A stretch of DNA of 64,000 bases, taken from NCBI GenBank assembly GCA_047602905.1, contig JBLKOP010000003.1, positions 15,508 to 79,507 on the forward strand, in the 5' to 3' direction. The notes under the pieces were generated by a model. It saw nothing but the letters and a program-made list of their open reading frames with translations, did not search any database and was not told the DNA's origin. A program made the position numbers and the translations under genes. The stretch's first letter is position 1. Each line of letters starts with the position of its first letter. This stretch comes from Candidatus Woesearchaeota archaeon (GTDB lineage Archaea > Nanobdellota > Nanobdellia > Woesearchaeales > SKIA01). Shown piece by piece: positions 9,712 to 46,590 of this stretch.

Positions 9712-11358
9712 GTGGCCACAGCAGAAGAACTAGCAAAACAGCAACGAGAAATAAGCATAGCAGAATTCTTTGAGAAAAACAGACACTTACTAGGCTTTGA
9801 CAACGCAAGAAAAGCACTCCTAACAACAGTAAAAGAAGCAGTAGATAACAGCCTAGACGCATGTGAAGAAGCAGACATCCTACCAGAAATAGAAGTAGAA
9901 ATCATAGACATGGGAAATGACCGCTACAGAATAATCATCGAAGATAACGGACCAGGAATAATAAAAGCACAAATAGGAAAAATATTTGCAAAACTCCTGT
10001 ACGGAAGCAAATTTCACAAACTTTCCCAGTCTCGCGGCCAACAAGGAATAGGAATAAGTGCTTCAGTAATGTACGGACAACTAACTACAGGACGAGCAGC
10101 AAGAATAACCAGCAAAACAAGCCAAGAAAAACTTGCAGAATACGTAGAAGTAAAGATAGACACAAAAACGAACAAGCCAGACATCGTTAGAGAAGAAGAA
10201 AAAGAATGGAGTAAAGCACGAGGAACAAGAGTAGAAATAGACCTTGAAGGAAGTTACGCGAAAGGAAGCCAATCAGTGGATGAATACCTCAAACAAACAG
10301 CAATAGTAAACCCGCACTTACAACTCATTTACGTAAACCCGCGAGGAGAGCAGTACCTCTTTCCACGAGCAACAGAAAAACACCCAGAACTACCCCAAGA
10401 AATCAAACCTCACCCGTACGGAGTAGAACTCGGAATGCTCATCAAAATGCTAGGATCAGCAGAACAAAGAACCGTACTAGCATTTCTAAGAGAAGAATTT
10501 GTACGCGTAAGCAACGCAGTAGCAAACGAGATACTCGGACACGCAAAGATAAGCCCAAAAGCAAAACCAAAAAGTCTACAGCGAGAACAAGCAGAAGAAC
10601 TCATAAAAGCAATAAAAAAAACAAAAATTATGAGTCCACCAACAGACTGCATAAGCCCAATAGGAGAAGAACTCCTGCTTAAAGGACTAAAAAAAGAAGT
10701 AAACGCGGAGTTCTACACAGCAGTAAGCAGAACACCAGCAGTATACAGAGGAAATCCGTTTGCCATAGAAGCAGCGATAGCATACGGAGGAAACATCAAA
10801 AGTGACGGAGCAGTCAATGTTTTACGATTCGCAAACAAAGTACCCTTACTCTACCAGCAAGGAGCGTGCGCAATAACAAAAGCAATTAGTGAAACCAACT
10901 GGAAAAGCTACGGACTAGAACAATCAGGAAATAACCTCCCAAAAGGACCAGCAGTTATTCTTGTACACATGGCAAGTGTGTGGGTGCCCTTTACCAGTGA
11001 AGCAAAAGAAGCAATGGCGCACTACGATGACATCATCAAAGAAATCAAGCTCGCAGTACAAGAAGCAGGGCGCAACCTACAAACCTACACGAAGAAAAAA
11101 CAAAAAGTAGGACGAGAACTCAAGAAAAGAAGCTACATAGAAAAATACTTACCACACCTCGCAAGCAGCGTAACAGCAATACTAGAAGGAGACAGAGCAG
11201 ACGAGGAAGAACTCACCAACCACTTAGTAGACTTACTAGAAAAGAAAAGAGGAGCATTAGATGATCTGCGCTTTGACCCAGAAGCAAACGAGGAGTACGA
11301 CGAAGAATTCGCAAAGATAGGACGAGAAGACGAGGAGGAAGAAAAAGATGAGTTCTAA
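9712..11358 (+). CDS. top6B: DNA topoisomerase VI subunit B
   Basis: [44 protein letters not shown]. Confidence 0.97.
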
Positions 11359-12439
11359 AGAAGAAACACTAAAAAAAATACGTTCAGTAGCACAAAACAT
11401 CAAGAACATGGTCGAGCAAGACCAAGCACCAGTCCTCTCAAGTCCTGTAAGAAGCCTCTCAAACGTCGATTACGACGCAACAGTAGGGCACTTCGTACTC
11501 AAAGGAAGCACGAAAGAGCGACAACTCAACGCAAACACCATAAAAACATTTGCACAAACACTTCTCTTACTCAAAGAAGCAAAAGAAGTCGTAGAAACAG
11601 ACGACATCATGACCAAAAGAGAAGCGTATTATGTAAGTAAGAACTGGGGGGATGCGAAGTTTAACGAACAACCAGAAAGCGACTCAGTAATGGATGACAT
11701 AGAAGCAATGCTAGGAATTTTGCGAGAAGCACTCGGTTTCATACCAGAAGAAGACGGAGGAGCAGTAGCAGGAAAACTCGTTATTATCGATCAAGACCCA
11801 GAAACAAAAAAAGACATACGTATAGACTGCACAAAATTTGGTTCAGGAGCCTATAACATTCCTTCAGACGTAGAAGAATTGCGCTTTGAGACAGACGCAA
11901 AATTCGTGTTAGCAATAGAAACAGCAGGTATGTTTCAGAGACTCGTAAAAAACAAGTTCTACACAAAACACAACTGCATCCTCGTAAGCATGAAAGGAGT
12001 ACCGAGCAGAGCAACAAGAAGATTCGTACGAAGACTAGCAGACGACAAAAAACTCCCTGTATTCGTATTCGTAGACGGGGATCCGTACGGACACACAAAC
12101 ATATACAGAACTTTTAAAGTTGGCAGTGGAAACGCAGCACACGTAAACCAATACTTCTGCGTACCACAAGCAAAACTTTTAGGAGTAACACCAAAAGACA
12201 TAGAAGACTACGACCTACCAACCCACGAACTAAAAAGCGTAGATATCAAACGAGCAAAAGACGCACTAAAAAACGACCCGTTCATTAAACAACACCCAAA
12301 ATGGCAAGAAGCAATTAAACTCATGCTGAAGCAAGGAAAAAGAAGCGAGCAGCAAAGCTTAGCAAAATACGGTCTTAACTACGTAGCAGAAAAATACTTA
12401 CCGGAGAAGTTAGCAAACCCTGATAGCTGGCTACCATAA
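11348..12439 (+). CDS. top6A: DNA topoisomerase VI subunit A
   Basis: TKREAYY (catalytic Tyr), [27 protein letters not shown]. Confidence 0.97.
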
Positions 12440-12499
12440 GTTTAGTACGTATTGAAACTATATCCGAGCTATATAAACAACGAGTACTTAGTTACTTAC

Positions 12500-12559
12500 A
12501 TGAAGCTTAACCTAACAGTAGCAAGTATAACAATCATCCTTCTCATAGCAATATGGTAA
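12500..12559 (+). CDS. Possible 19-aa hydrophobic peptide
   Basis: MKLNLTVASITIILLIAIW*, with TATATAAA about 23 nt upstream. Confidence 0.35.
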   Translation: MKLNLTVASITIILLIAIW

Positions 12560-12591
12560 ACACATAAATACTTTTTCGCATTTCTTGTTAC

Positions 12592-12772
12592 ATGCAAGAA
12601 GTAGAGCTAAAGTTTATCGAAATAAACAAAGAGGAAATGATTTCACGCATAGAAGCATTAGGAGCTAACAAAAAGTATTCTCACACGCTTCAAAGCACGA
12701 TGTTTGGAGCAAAAGGGTACTGCATTAATTCAAGCATTGATAAACCATACCTGCGAGTACGCCAAATAGGAG
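12592..12772 (+). pseudogene. CYTH (class IV adenylate cyclase/triphosphatase) gene, 5' part, interrupted by an insertion
   Basis: N-terminal EVELK (ExExK) motif and YLRVRQIG; CYTH resemblance stops at ~12772. Confidence 0.85.
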
Positions 12773-13705
12773 TTATCTGCTCATTGAGAATAGGCAAGGA
12801 AGAGCAAAGTATTTGTTGTTACTATTTAGTTATTAATTTACGAATATTTATATAGTTGTGATACATTCTGTTTAATATGGCTGATAAGAACTCTATTCAC
12901 ATGCACTCAGGAAATTATGATATTCTTGAAAAGGTAAGTGAAAACTTTCAAAATTTGGAGCATCTCACAACAGCTGAATATCTTGCAAATAGGCTTTATT
13001 CTAAAGAAATTATTCCTTTACCGGAAAATGCTAAGCACAAACTTATTGGTCTTGCAGAAAAAATTTATGATATGGGAATTAGTGAGTCAGAAAAAGATCG
13101 TTCTATTGCTCGAAGAGCGGTTCCTCGTCTCATTAAAACAATAGCTGATGCGTACAGCTCAGAAAAAGATGCTCATGGAGAAACGCTCAAACACTTCTTT
13201 GAAGATGACAATAAATTAATCAGTGGTCTTGCTAAACTTGCATATGAACGAACTCCTGTGCGTCAACGAGAGCTCAAAGAAAATCATTTAGCATGGTATG
13301 ACTTGTCAGACAATTTAAAGACTCAAGAAATTCAGACCAAGTCAAAAGACCCTCGTGATAAAATTGCGGAATTCCTTCAACAGACCACTGCTCCTAAAAC
13401 ACAGGATACACCTATCCAAACACACATACACACTGAAAAATATTCTGGGAGGGCTGCACTTAATGTTGATGATATTATGCATACACTTGAAGTAAAAGAA
13501 TTTAATGTGCTAAAAGAATTTAATGTGCTAAACTTTTTTCGCAGAAACCAAGATAGACCACAATACAATATTCCAAACTGGTGATTTGTATTCAGCACTA
13601 AATTGCACTTTCTTTGCTCTTCTTACTTCGTATTTTTCTCAACGCCGCTAACGCTCAGATAACATGCTCTAAAACGCATTGCAAGCAACGCGCTTTACTG
13701 CTGAT
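12773..13705 (+). mobile_element. Inserted one-ORF element, integron-cassette-like (attC-like right end, no integrase)
   Basis: Removal restores CAA ATA GGA GAT AAA GTA (QIGDKV). Left end G|TTATCTG; complementary CAGATAAC at 13656-13663 followed by a hairpin at 13666-13701. Alternative in-frame boundaries are 12772..13707. Confidence 0.75.
12877..13584 (+). CDS. Hypothetical cargo protein of the inserted element
   Basis: 235-aa ORF with its own TTTATATA box at 12847-12854; codon usage more T-rich than flanking + strand genes; internal 18-bp tandem duplication (KEFNVL twice). Confidence 0.8.
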   Translation: MADKNSIHMHSGNYDILEKVSENFQNLEHLTTAEYLANRLYSKEIIPLPENAKHKLIGLAEKIYDMGISESEKDRSIARRAVPRLIKTIADAYSSEKDAHGETLKHFFEDDNKLISGLAKLAYERTPVRQRELKENHLAWYDLSDNLKTQEIQTKSKDPRDKIAEFLQQTTAPKTQDTPIQTHIHTEKYSGRAALNVDDIMHTLEVKEFNVLKEFNVLNFFRRNQDRPQYNIPNW

Positions 13706-14046
13706 ATAAAGTACTTATAACGCACAAAAGCCCAAGTCAAAGCAGCCAGTTTGATAGCCGCGAAGAAACAGAAATAATAACAAGCGCTTCGTACGAGCAA
13801 ACGATAGCTTTCATCGAGAAACTTGGCTTTAGCGCGCACAAAGACATCGCTAAGCATAGAACGCATTATGAGCTGGGAAACACTCATTTTGAGATAGACG
13901 AATACGAACAACTCCCGCCATACTTAGAGATAGAGACGCAAAACGAAAAAGACATGATTATGATATGTGAGAAGCTTGGACTTGACCCTGCAGAAGGAAA
14001 ACCGTTCTCTATAGTAGATATATACCCAGAATTAGTAATAGACTAA
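13706..14046 (+). pseudogene. CYTH gene, 3' part
   Basis: Open frame KVLITHKSP...SREETEI...KLGF...KHRTHYELGNTHFEIDEY...PPYLEIET...LVID* with no start codon of its own. Confidence 0.85.
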
Positions 14047-14468
14047 TTCTCTCGTACATCAACAACAGACAAGTCTTTTCGTATCTTTATAAGAGCGTCC
14101 AAGTTATAGAGTAAGCCATGATTTATGTCTCCAGAGCCTGTGTGAAGAACTTCTAAGTTAAGAACTGTTTTGTCAACAAACAACTCGCAATTAATTGTTA
14201 AGGGACAGCACTCACCAGGAAGCCAACCAAGCTCTATTAACTCTTCTGGTCGCAGAGGACTAACAGCGTCATCAACTATTTCACGAATTTTCTTGTACGA
14301 GACACGATCATCTTTTTTTACCGCAACAGCAAACGGCTCAGAGGAGCTGCGCTTCTTAAAAACAACTGTTTTCACCACGTCTCCCTTATCAGCATACGCC
14401 TCAAGTACCTCACAAGAAAACCCGTGCTTCTCAAGCAAAGAAACAGCAACTTGTACTTTCTCATTCAT
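14043..14468 (-). CDS. YbaK/ProX-like aminoacyl-tRNA editing domain protein
   Basis: VVKTVVFK, RVSYKKI, LGWLPGECCPL, VDKTVL, TGSG; ATG at 14468. Confidence 0.8.
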   Translation of the reverse strand: MNEKVQVAVSLLEKHGFSCEVLEAYADKGDVVKTVVFKKRSSSEPFAVAVKKDDRVSYKKIREIVDDAVSPLRPEELIELGWLPGECCPLTINCELFVDKTVLNLEVLHTGSGDINHGLLYNLDALIKIRKDLSVVDVREN

Positions 14469-14542
14469 AAACAAAACAAACAAGTAAGTCTTTAAGTCTG
14501 TTTTGCTAAACTACTTAAACAAGAAGCAACCAAAGACTCTGT

Positions 14543-15700
14543 ATGGTAACAGTAACTCCTTGGGACGTAGTAGGAACTATTGATTATGACAAGCTCATAG
14601 AAGAGTTTGGAGTGCAAAAACTCACACAAGATCTTAAGAAGCGCTTAGAAAAACACGCACAAAAAAAAGGCTTTCCACTACACAGACACCTGAGAAGAAA
14701 CTTAGTGTTTGCTCACAGAGACCTAGAAAAATTCTTAGACGCTTATGAAGCAGATAAACCCGTAGCTTTGTACACAGGAAGAAGCCCTTCAGGAAACATA
14801 CACCTAGGACACATGTACGTGTGGGAGTTTACGAAATGGCTTCAAGACGTCTTTGACTGCGAGCTTTACTTTCAGTTTCCTGACGAAGAAAAATTTTTGT
14901 TCAAACAAGAACTTAGCTACGAAGAAGCACAAAAATACTTAGAAGAAAACCTCCTAGACGTAGCAGCAATGGGCTTTAAGAAAGAAAAAACGTATTTCCT
15001 CATAGACACCAAGCACGCAAACACGCTCTACCCACTAGCACTACAAGTAGCGAAGAAAATCACGTACAACCAAGTAAAAAGCACGTTTGGATTTACAGAT
15101 AGCCAAAACATAGGAGCAATTTTTTACACAGCAATGCAAGCAGTACCCGCAATCCTGCCAAGCATAGATAACGGCACAGAAACCTACGTACTCATCCCGC
15201 ACGCAATAGACCAAGACCCACACTTTAGAATAAGTAGAGACGTCATAAAAAAACTCGGCTACCCAAAACCAGCAAGCATCCAAGGAAGATTCCTACCAGG
15301 ACTAGCAGGACAAGAAACCGATGGGAAAATGAGCAGCAGCAAAGAACAAACAGCAATATACAGCACAGACACAGCAAGTCAGATAAAGAAAAAAATCAAT
15401 AAATACGCGTACAGCGGAGGAAGAGAAACACTAGAAGAACATAGAAGACGAGGAGGAAAGCCAGAAGTAGACGTAGCGTATCAGTGGCTAACGTTCTTTT
15501 TAGAAGATGATAAAGAGCTTAAAGAACTTCATGAATTATACACAGAAGGAGAACTACTCAGCGGAGAGATGAAAGCAAGATGCATAGAAGTAATCCAAAA
15601 ATACTTACAAGAACACCAAACACGAAGAACAACAGTTAAGGTAAACAACTTCTTATACGATAAGCGTAAGAAAACTCACGATTCCCAAAGCAAACAATAA
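14543..15700 (+). CDS. trpS: Tryptophan--tRNA ligase
   Basis: VTPWDV, YTGRSPS, HLGH, DQDPHFR, KMSSS. Confidence 0.97.
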   Translation: MVTVTPWDVVGTIDYDKLIEEFGVQKLTQDLKKRLEKHAQKKGFPLHRHLRRNLVFAHRDLEKFLDAYEADKPVALYTGRSPSGNIHLGHMYVWEFTKWLQDVFDCELYFQFPDEEKFLFKQELSYEEAQKYLEENLLDVAAMGFKKEKTYFLIDTKHANTLYPLALQVAKKITYNQVKSTFGFTDSQNIGAIFYTAMQAVPAILPSIDNGTETYVLIPHAIDQDPHFRISRDVIKKLGYPKPASIQGRFLPGLAGQETDGKMSSSKEQTAIYSTDTASQIKKKINKYAYSGGRETLEEHRRRGGKPEVDVAYQWLTFFLEDDKELKELHELYTEGELLSGEMKARCIEVIQKYLQEHQTRRTTVKVNNFLYDKRKKTHDSQSKQ

Positions 15701-44586: not shown

Positions 44587-46479
44587 ATGACTGATTTCAT
44601 AAAAGAAGTACTTAAGCACGTACCTAAAGAAAAAATTACTGAGGCTTGCTTTGAGGGAGCAAACATTGTTTTGTACACGAAAAGTAAGAAGTTCTTTCTT
44701 AATCATTCTCAAGAAGTGCGCAAAGCAGTTGCTGCAGTAAAGAAGCGTATTGAGGTGCGTCCAGACCCGGATATGTGTCTTTCTCAAGCCGAGGCGCAAG
44801 AGAAGATTATGAAGATGTTTGAGGAGGAGGTGGGCATTGCACAAATCATTTTTGATCCTCGCAGAAGCGTTGTTATTATTGAGGCTGAGAAGCCAGGAAG
44901 TATTATTGGTCGAGGAGGAGAAGGCCTTGACAAGATTAAGGAAGAGACGTTGTGGCTTCCTGTTATTAAACGAACGCCTCCTCTTCGCAGTACGCACTTA
45001 GAAAAAATTCGTAGTGTGCTGTATGAGAATAGTGATGAGAGACGTAAGTTTCTTAACGCTGCTGGTGAGCGTATTCAACGTCCTAAAAAAACTCCTGGTC
45101 AGGAGTGGGTTCGCATAACGTATCTTGGTAGTGGTCGACAAGTTGGTCGTAGTGCTTTGTTATTGCAGACTCCTGAGAGTAAAGTATTGTTTGATTGCGG
45201 TATTGATGTTTCTCGTGATGATGAAGAAGCGTATCCTATCCTAGAGGCTCCTGAGTTTCGTTTAGAGGAGCTTGATGCTATTGTTGTTAGTCACGCGCAC
45301 CTTGATCACACCGGTTTTATTCCGTACTTGTTTAAGTACGGGTATCGTGGTCCGGTGTATTGTACGCTTCCTACCCGTGATATTATGAGCTTAACGCAGC
45401 TGGATACGATTAAGATTGCTCGTCACGAGGGTAAAGAGCCTATTTATACTGCTGATGATATTAAGCAGCAGTTACTTCACACTATTGATTTGGAGTATGA
45501 GGAGGTGTGTGATATTACTCCTGATGTTCGTATTACGTTTTATAATTCTGGGCACATGCTTGGTGCTGCTATGGTTCACATTCATGTGGGTAATGGGCTT
45601 CATAATATTGTGTACTCAGCTGATATTAAGTACACGGATAGTTTCTTGCTTGCTAAGGCGAAAACGAAGTTTCCTCGTTGCGAAACGCTTCTTATTGAAG
45701 GAACGTATGGAGGTAAGGATAACGTTCTTCCTCCTATGCATGAACAAAACGAGATCTTTGCTGATATTATTAAGAAAACGATTGCTCGTAAGGGAAAACT
45801 TTTAGTTCCTGTTCTTGGTAGTGGTCGTGGCCAGGAGATCATGGCTCATATTCATTACATGGTTCGTAAGGGAGAAATTGATCCTGTTCCTGTCTATGTT
45901 GATGGGATGGTTTGGGATATTACTGCTCTTCACACCGCTTATCCGGAGTTCTTGAATCCTCAGATGCGTAAACAAATCTTTCATAAAGATGATAATCCGT
46001 TTTTAGCAGAGTATATCAAGCACGTTCCTAGTGGTAAGGAGCGACAAAACATTATTGATGGTGATGAGTCCTGTATTATTTTGGCTACGAGCGGTATGCT
46101 TGTTGGTGGTGCTTCTGTGCAGTACCTTAAGGGGCTTGCTGAGCAGAAAAAGAATTCTTTAGTGTTTTGTTCCTATCTTGGTCCTGGTAGTCTTGGTCGG
46201 CGCATTCATGATGGGGAGAAAGAAATTGCTTTCTCTAAGGGTAATGGTGGCCAGGACGTGTTGTACATTAACCTTGAGGTTCATAAAATTGAGATTACTG
46301 GTCACGCTGATAGGCGTGAACTTATGGCTTTTGTAAAGAACGTGCAGCCTCGTCCTAGGCGTATTATGATTAATCACGGCGAGGTTAGTCGCTGTATGGA
46401 TTTAGCGAGTTCTCTTCATAAGAAGTATCGTATTGAGACGCTTTGTCCTAAGAACTTGGATGCTATTCGTTTGCGTTAG
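44587..46479 (+). CDS. aCPSF1/FttA beta-CASP ribonuclease with KH domains
   Basis: KH region EKPGSIIG; VGRS, HAHLDH, GHMLG, GHADR, NHGE. Confidence 0.95.
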   Translation: MTDFIKEVLKHVPKEKITEACFEGANIVLYTKSKKFFLNHSQEVRKAVAAVKKRIEVRPDPDMCLSQAEAQEKIMKMFEEEVGIAQIIFDPRRSVVIIEAEKPGSIIGRGGEGLDKIKEETLWLPVIKRTPPLRSTHLEKIRSVLYENSDERRKFLNAAGERIQRPKKTPGQEWVRITYLGSGRQVGRSALLLQTPESKVLFDCGIDVSRDDEEAYPILEAPEFRLEELDAIVVSHAHLDHTGFIPYLFKYGYRGPVYCTLPTRDIMSLTQLDTIKIARHEGKEPIYTADDIKQQLLHTIDLEYEEVCDITPDVRITFYNSGHMLGAAMVHIHVGNGLHNIVYSADIKYTDSFLLAKAKTKFPRCETLLIEGTYGGKDNVLPPMHEQNEIFADIIKKTIARKGKLLVPVLGSGRGQEIMAHIHYMVRKGEIDPVPVYVDGMVWDITALHTAYPEFLNPQMRKQIFHKDDNPFLAEYIKHVPSGKERQNIIDGDESCIILATSGMLVGGASVQYLKGLAEQKKNSLVFCSYLGPGSLGRRIHDGEKEIAFSKGNGGQDVLYINLEVHKIEITGHADRRELMAFVKNVQPRPRRIMINHGEVSRCMDLASSLHKKYRIETLCPKNLDAIRLR

Positions 46480-46590
46480 AATAGTTTTTTTATTTTTTTG
46501 TTATTTTCTATATAGAAATAATATTGTTTGTTACTGTTAAGTGACTATAAATTCGTAGCTTTTATATAGTAGTTACTACATAGTAGTAGT

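Follow-up and report, generated by a model that had tools for sequence, protein, structure and literature searches.

A probably foreign one-gene insert splits a woesearchaeal CYTH gene and resembles an integron cassette in architecture only

The folded bottom strand of an integron attC site requires L boxes with extrahelical bases, and elements of the HUH type insert seamlessly beside a short target and carry a hairpin a few bases inside their 3' end. The palindrome-associated transposable elements (PATEs) of archaea, non-autonomous derivatives of the insertion sequence (IS) family IS200/IS605, likewise insert seamlessly and have a hairpin near their 3' end. In the account given by Loot et al. 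(bioRxiv 10.1101/2022.09.11.507474), solo cassettes at genomic GWT sites are documented for bacteria, and these single attC sites lacking an integrase (SALINs) comprise one gene and then a folded site, within a chromosomal gene and outside arrays. Archaeal integrons and clusters of attC sites lacking an integrase (CALINs), as presented by Ghaly et al. 2022 (PMC9668308), are attC-model arrays of at least two sites, singletons being excluded. Mobile insertion cassettes and miniature inverted-repeat transposable elements (MITEs) are conceived, in the description cited here (PMC3913671), as inverted-repeat ends around a passenger gene. Here we describe a CYTH-family gene split by an insert of about 933 nucleotides (nt) in the genome of a Candidatus Woesearchaeota archaeon (GCA_047602905.1; 960,688 bp, 14 contigs, 99.18% complete). 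The locus lies in a stretch of 64,000 nt, hereafter the window, which covers positions 15508-79507 of contig JBLKOP010000003.1 (G000:C12:15508-79507); positions given without a contig are those of the window.

We favour, at a probability of about 0.55, the explanation that a foreign one-gene piece of about 933 nt was inserted in trans and is now fixed in a dispensable CYTH paralogue, which would make the interrupted copy a young pseudogene. The frame that opens at the ATG at 12592 (MQEVELKF...YLRVRQIG) enters foreign sequence after 12771/12772 and meets a TAG at 12853-12855, and the second half of the gene (KVLITHK...YLEIETQ...) begins at 13708 in the same frame as the first and runs to a stop codon at 14044-14046. 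Both halves are stop-free and retain their motif residues, and the proposal of an initial annotation that they rejoin in frame upon removal of the insert was borne out by the sequence, the frames and an alignment. The alignment included five intact CYTH homologues of 171-176 amino acids (aa), three from a protein collection (48-53% identity), one from the same-genus genome G002 and one from genome G018. Both halves aligned contiguously to each single homologue, abutting with exactly one empty column (RQIG-x-KV, against RQIG-S-D-V, RQIG-T-R-V and RQIG-E-Q-V in P0003-P0005), so removal of 933 nt would return a CYTH protein of the homologues' length. Membership of the family is indicated by PF01928 in the 3' half, by EVELK, an ExExK motif, in the 5' half, and by the collinearity of both halves with the homologues, which match PF01928 wherever tested; the 60-aa 5' half, too short when searched alone, gave no Pfam match. 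In G002 an uninterrupted 176-aa CYTH gene lies directly behind topoisomerase VI subunit A (topoVI-A), the same position as here.

The insertion is precise, without target duplication and with at most one codon lost. The frame survives whichever 933 nt are taken out of the range from about 12772 to 13705, the right boundary being limited by an in-frame TGA at 13702-13704, and either triplet (GTT... or ...TAT) of the six bases at the junction may belong to the gene. As the 3' half has no in-frame ATG, GTG or TTG before 13951, it would be untranslatable alone and the gene is off. The stretch is present in seven sequencing runs from two studies, the holders being lake-water metagenomes that may include its source. 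Contigs of three DNA runs among these seven carry the inserted form only, with no difference and no joint, which rules out misassembly, and the insertion stands.

The interrupted gene had been taken for a core gene, a view that did not hold. With the CYTH 3' half as query (E <= 0.01), a match was found in 14 of 40 relatives and in one of the four same-genus genomes, and an intact CYTH paralogue is encoded on contig C9 of this genome (PF01928, E 1.6e-7). Because that paralogue is intact and three of the four same-genus genomes have no match to the query, the interrupted copy is predicted to be dispensable, and not core, in this organism. The slot behind topoVI-A varies within the genus, holding the intact CYTH gene in G002 and other genes in two further genomes: an open reading frame (ORF) of 403 aa on the opposite strand without a Pfam family in G001, and a 302-aa LAGLIDADG-like ORF (PF14528, E 5.6e-5) with a 15-nt flanking inverted repeat (80% match) in G003.

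The insert looks foreign, and is probably recent, since the third codon positions of its ORF lack the strong local strand bias. This regional bias is strong irrespective of gene orientation: on the + strand, the A and T fractions at third positions are 0.51 and 0.12 for topoVI-A, 0.49 and 0.14 for the gene at 14543, and 0.40 and 0.23 for the gene at 14043, which lies on the minus strand. Across 66 ORFs of the window, the mean third-position skew was +0.49 (standard deviation 0.30), with values at or below zero in four of the 66 and of +0.27 to +0.63 in the flanking genes. The insert ORF, by comparison, shows third positions of A 0.34 and T 0.41, an A/T skew of -0.10 and a third-position GC content of 0.25, and the GC content of the whole insert is 0.354, against 0.41 for the window. 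The insert is single-copy, no second copy of it, of its ends or of its hairpin being found in the genome (blastn-short).

In line with the initial annotation, the insert carries its own TATA-driven ORF, and since the TATA box lies only 23 nt before the ATG, the mRNA is probably leaderless. The T5 run behind the ORF is presumably its terminator, which we assume from general knowledge of archaeal termination. Searches of the insert DNA against 400 genomes of the order returned only the promoter module plus scattered short matches at chance level (tallies over order genomes include the unpublished genomes G248, G210 and G137, solely within denominators). Among the relatives aligned, the module was clear upstream of unrelated genes in five, and it was found at two other places in this genome. 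Since other genes of the lineage share this module, the insert probably came from a related archaeon, or from mobile DNA of one, and not from a bacterial cassette pool. In the module, the near-palindrome GTTACTnnTTAGTnA, which resembles an operator, precedes AAAGATTTATATAGTT by about 15 nt, and the genes that carry it, all in Woesearchaeales genomes, include signal-peptidase-like and Hsp20-like ones. Its sites are the one within the insert (12817-12854), one at about 46531-46590 of the window (C12:62038), one at G000:C13:59024, and those of L041, L042, L044, L045 and L046 near 1490-1560, a distribution that looks like a small regulon as judged from these sequences. Just upstream of one of the module's genes, a 631-codon ORF at 44587-46479 (+) has a third-position A/T skew of -0.60, opposite to nearly all of its neighbours, and may mark a segment that was inverted or acquired.

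The protein encoded by the insert belongs to no Pfam or PHROG family, and a word-indexed search of 5.8 billion clusters returned 0 matches. Two matches were found among 1.84 billion representatives. One, P0001 (242 aa), aligns over the full length at 38% identity (E 6e-7) and is known from a single 922-bp contig, a length near that of the insert, which we regard as a lead and not as evidence; its genomic context gave 0 confirmed loci in scans of genomes, metagenomes and viral contigs. The other, P0002, has HEAT-like repeats and matches over a single helix pair. Against the 400 order genomes the ORF gave chance matches only, the best of which, in G248, lay within a nucleotidyltransferase gene and was discarded. 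An AlphaFold model was all-helical, but its pLDDT of 43.6 was too low to make a fold search meaningful, and the Atlas neighbours, all under 0.9, offered weak HEAT-like leads only. As nothing in the protein suggests a nuclease, recombinase or transposase, the ORF appears to be a passenger. One contig of 159 nt with adapter ends, from an RNA run (X8), covers 13263-13404 (142 nt) of the ORF; the ORF sequence is thus present in an RNA library, which is not proof of transcription, and missing coverage elsewhere is uninformative. Within the ORF, 18 nt are perfectly duplicated in tandem at 13493-13528, a fresh slippage event by which KEFNVL is encoded twice.

The anatomy of the insert ends could be read directly and was as initially annotated: complementary boxes, a hairpin, a spacer TGAT(AT) between the hairpin and the resuming CYTH sequence, and two A-C mismatches of the top-strand hairpin that become G-T pairs on the bottom strand (Table 1). 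Likewise, the box-hairpin-box layout that arises upon circularising the insert is real. The inverted arms exceed chance. With 13 or 14 genomic occurrences each, where about 18 per strand would be expected, the 8-mers GTTATCTG and CAGATAAC are unremarkable as words; the chance of meeting the reverse complement of the starting 8-mer within the last ~100 nt of the insert is, however, ~0.002, as estimated from its genome frequency. A second collinear inverted block (TTGAG..GAAGAGCAAAG at 12799-12809 versus 13612-13622) scored 26, compared with 15.7 +/- 2.6 in shuffled sequence, and was reached by four of 1000 shuffles. With milder gap costs the inverted-repeat alignment begins exactly at 12772, the left boundary of the insert being the first base of the inverted repeat, and complementarity of the ends reaches about 40-50 nt beyond the boxes. 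Ranked by flanking inverted repeats, the insert ORF stands joint 5th-8th among 1020 ORFs of the genome. The arms of the other high-scoring ORFs were mostly AT-rich and of low complexity; in the one inspected, C3:30728-31468, the left arm falls within a neighbouring pgi-like gene, and this ORF was rejected as a similar cassette.

Table 1. Coordinates of the interrupted CYTH gene, the parts of its insert and the neighbouring genes (window positions).
Feature	Position	Strand	Description
CYTH 5' fragment	12592..12772	+	60 codons plus 1 base; EVELK motif; aligns to N-termini of 5 intact homologues
Insert	12773..13705	+	933 nt; boundaries uncertain by 1-3 nt
Left inverted-repeat arm	12772..12809		GTTATCTG (12772-12779), TTGAGAA, GAAGAGCAAAG (12799-12809)
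Promoter module	12817..12854	+	operator-like GTTACTATTTAGTTA (12817-12831); TATA box TTTATATA (12847-12854), 23 nt before ATG
Orphan ORF	12877..13584	+	235 aa; predicted all-helical, weakly HEAT-like
Right inverted-repeat arm	13612..13663		complements in order: CTTTGCTCTTC (13612-13622), TTCTCAA, CAGATAAC (13656-13663)
T5 run	13633..13637	+	likely terminator of ORF transcript
Palindrome/hairpin	13666..13701		12-bp core stem 13670-13681/13686-13697, loop CAAG; 2 bases after right arm
CYTH 3' fragment	13706..14046	+	113 codons; PF01928 E 1.4e-6; aligns to homologues
topoVI-A	11348-12439		upstream of split CYTH; Pfam E 2.4e-63
YbaK/tRNA-editing-domain gene	14043-14483	minus	downstream of CYTH 3' half

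Taken together, these observations most likely reflect an ordinary insertion, now fixed, of a small mobile element that belongs to no established class, and we envisage its history as follows. A foreign piece of about 933 nt with a self-sufficient gene (promoter, 235-aa orphan helical protein and T-run terminator) would have entered the dispensable CYTH paralogue, arriving as a non-autonomous one-gene cassette whose ends, once joined, would make up a long, imperfect palindrome with a hairpin of 28-36 nt at its tip. Its joining to the chromosome may have proceeded by conservative hairpin-site recombination in trans, in the manner of an integron cassette or of a single-strand element of the IS200/IS605 type, through an enzyme that would not be a canonical integron integrase and that this genome would no longer encode, or would never have encoded. 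The left cut would then have fallen at the first base of the long split palindrome, leaving the tip hairpin on the right side. The insert would now be fixed and immobile, and the CYTH gene a young pseudogene and not a switch. In anatomy, the ends may be said to resemble folded-site recombination as it occurs with integrons.

Several observations weigh against this account. No mover was found in the genome: no IntI was detected with TIGR02249, Y1 TnpA (PF01797) and DDE_Tnp_1 gave 0 matches each, and TnpB (PF07282) gave three weak matches, none over cut-off. As no sibling element is known, the argument for mobility is one from anatomy alone, and parts of that anatomy fit imperfectly. The right inverted repeat stops 42 nt inside the insert and is not terminal. 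Folded as single-stranded DNA, the bottom strand of the hairpin reaches -8.1 kcal/mol (z -1.03), which 34 of 200 shuffles equal, and the top strand -4.6 kcal/mol (z +0.62); the bottom strand is notable only with RNA parameters (-18.5 kcal/mol, z -2.39, 4/200 shuffles). Its G-T pairs are, moreover, those that an A+C-enriching bias of the + strand would be expected to leave on a perfect palindrome, and they may carry no information on strand use. Because the local bias yields the same mismatches, folding on the bottom strand, which had been offered as evidence of an integron, is not diagnostic, although the unameliorated insert would have had little time to mutate. The read evidence, furthermore, takes the form of contigs, which hide rare empty sites or excision, and the intact CYTH halves fit a recent insertion but fit equally a gene that is somehow still restored. 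An excision switch for CYTH, as initially suggested, is not supported by the contigs of the three DNA runs, in which the inserted form alone was seen and rare excision is possible.

A bolder version of the mobile-element explanation would place the insert, as a solitary representative, in a class of one-gene cassettes of archaea that has yet to be described. Each of these would have a long palindrome of its own with a hairpin at the tip, and would be moved on folded DNA by an Xer-like, non-IntI recombinase and inserted seamlessly even in coding sequence. We consider this tentative and rather unlikely. The genome holds four tyrosine-recombinase-like matches, of which two are full-length, Xer-like genes of 276-277 aa. 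The neighbourhoods of the two Xer-like genes, located at C10:45085-45912 and C3:22255-23025, contained no arrays and no matching 8-mer cores. An 11-6-11 inverted-repeat reading is possible for the palindrome core at 13670-13697, with 9/11 arm matches, and an arm-spacer-arm plan of this kind is the architecture given for Xer/dif-type sites in the source cited (PMC2958812). Such repeats are expected by chance at an estimated 100-300 places, roughly, and the insert junction lies 8 nt outside the core; the dif-like reading of the palindrome was not favoured, architecture being all that is shared and the crossover not being there.

Alternatively, illegitimate recombination or break repair may have brought in a foreign fragment, the repeats and the palindrome being regulatory or terminator features of the donor. 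The lack of a mobility enzyme and of sibling copies is in accordance with this, as are a promoter module that is the one used by ordinary chromosomal genes of the order, the variable slot behind topoVI-A within the genus, and the seven of 1020 genome ORFs that score as high or higher for flanking inverted repeats. Yet the inverted repeat starts precisely at the left breakpoint, and the insertion is in frame with no target bases deleted or added beyond one codon, which is unusual for end joining. On balance we judge such a capture unlikely.

The integron reading of the initial annotation would, in full, amount to a true cassette with a solo attC site (a SALIN), integrated by IntI at a GWT secondary (attG) site in the CYTH gene and still excisable. 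Several features speak for it. The insertion is seamless, circularising yields box-hairpin-box, and the left junction GGAG|TTATCTG fits G|TT. Like the bacterial SALINs, so far as these are characterized in the source cited above, the insert consists of one gene followed by a folded site, lies within a chromosomal gene outside arrays, and shows no target duplication, a G|TT left junction, a GAT rejoined target and no integrase nearby. This GAT fits the GWT consensus given for attG sites of IntI1 (bioRxiv 10.1101/2022.09.11.507474), and archaeal integrons do exist, with hairpin-site gene cassettes reported in DPANN archaea, GTDB Nanoarchaeota included (PMC9668308).

The integron mechanism itself was not borne out. 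Against the IntI model TIGR02249 (cut-off 265 bits), each of the two Xer-like genes matched in two pieces only, 1-174 and 237/239-314, at 103+77 and 102+103 bits. The segment missing from both (model positions ~175-236) is, we take it, the IntI-specific domain. None of 401 order genomes, this one included, exceeded the cut-off, a search that had no positive control because the 14 control genomes were themselves without IntI. No sibling site was found in this genome, in 300 other order genomes by a box-plus-stem pattern or in viral contigs, no attC-like repeat family emerged among 16-mers present at least three times in the genome, and Rfam searches of 12000-14600 at E up to 10 gave nothing relevant, only sub-threshold snoRNA-like noise. 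The boxes AGATAAC/GTTATCT show full complementarity and retain AAC/GTT, but two of their four degenerate positions depart from RYYYAAC/GTTRRRY, a match at 5/7 positions. On the bottom strand the stem is an uninterrupted 12-bp helix with no bulges and therefore without extrahelical bases. The right junction, GCTGAT|ATAAAG, is T|A with no G before the target, such that a substitution at 13705 must be assumed, and the pairing of the ends continues far past the boxes, for which attC sites have no need.

In contrast to SALINs as the cited account describes them, the insert therefore has no IntI in its genome or in 400 relatives, boxes off consensus, no extrahelical bases, a right junction that is not G|W, pairing beyond the boxes, a promoter of its own and of a lineage-specific type, and an archaeal host. 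Unlike the archaeal integrons and CALINs of the survey cited (PMC9668308), it comprises one site, with no array and no IntI. The likeness to an integron cassette is superficial, a matter of architecture only, and we hold a true cassette to be distinctly unlikely.

Transposition offers two further routes, neither of which we rate higher than an integron cassette. The first is a non-autonomous inverted-repeat transposon, that is, a mobile insertion cassette or a MITE with a passenger, moved by a DDE transposase in trans. Imperfect inverted repeats of about 38-52 nt around a single passenger gene, with no transposase, match that concept as outlined in the source cited (PMC3913671), but there is no target-site duplication, the right repeat is non-terminal, ending 42 nt from the end, and the insert is single-copy, with no sibling or cognate IS in the genome. 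DDE_Tnp_1 gave 0 matches, other DDE families not having been searched. Such an origin is accordingly improbable.

The second is a single-strand element of the HUH type, either an IS200/IS605 derivative or a rolling-circle element, which we likewise think improbable. Seamless insertion without duplication, a hairpin ending 4-6 nt before the right junction and a strand-asymmetric stem are what such an element would leave. Set against these, and unlike the PATEs, the insert has neither TnpA nor TnpB over cut-off in its genome, no left-end hairpin beyond shuffle level, and an ORF that is neither of these proteins. It also has inverted-repeat ends, which to our knowledge are not a feature of the IS200/IS605 or rolling-circle families.

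Removal at the RNA level, by a bulge-helix-bulge or self-splicing intron that would leave CYTH still made, is very improbable: the in-frame length, the two intact halves with all motif residues, the long-range pairing of the insert ends that would bring the junctions close and the pre-mRNA introns known for archaeal cbf5, as reported in PMC2738675, would all suit it, but the strict bulge-helix-bulge motif hBHBh' was found at 0 of 16,830 junction pairs (relaxed, 15 versus 10.3 in shuffles), there was no group I or group II match at E up to 10 across 12000-14600, the insert brings a promoter and a terminator of its own, and its foreign composition indicates DNA acquisition. By its features, the insert falls into none of these families.

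Two other repeats were observed elsewhere in the genome. At G000:C14:16115-16697, five or six copies of a unit of 31-43 nt (AGTACCAAACATTAAAGATTCGCACTCTTCAGAAGCTCTACAA) are spaced 78-204 nt apart and may represent an array of interspersed repeats, CRISPR-like or of another kind. The same 77-nt sequence is found at the start of C1, at the start of C11 (as reverse complement) and at the end of C12; a repeat of 77 nt or more interrupts the assembly at these contig ends.

Overall, the fixed insertion of a small element that we favour would make this locus a clean, datable case in which the recent acquisition of a single gene inactivated another in a genome of 0.96 Mb. The locus further illustrates that strand-biased local mutation can mimic the "bottom-strand" signatures of hairpins. 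Were the insert to represent an undescribed cassette class, it would be an archaeal counterpart of SALIN insertion at attG sites, and precise excision could turn CYTH on. Ultimately, if the anatomy of its ends reflects a real mechanism of mobility, the insert would contribute an example of integrase-poor gene capture at hairpin sites among ultra-small archaea, and would indicate that such cassettes can land inside genes.

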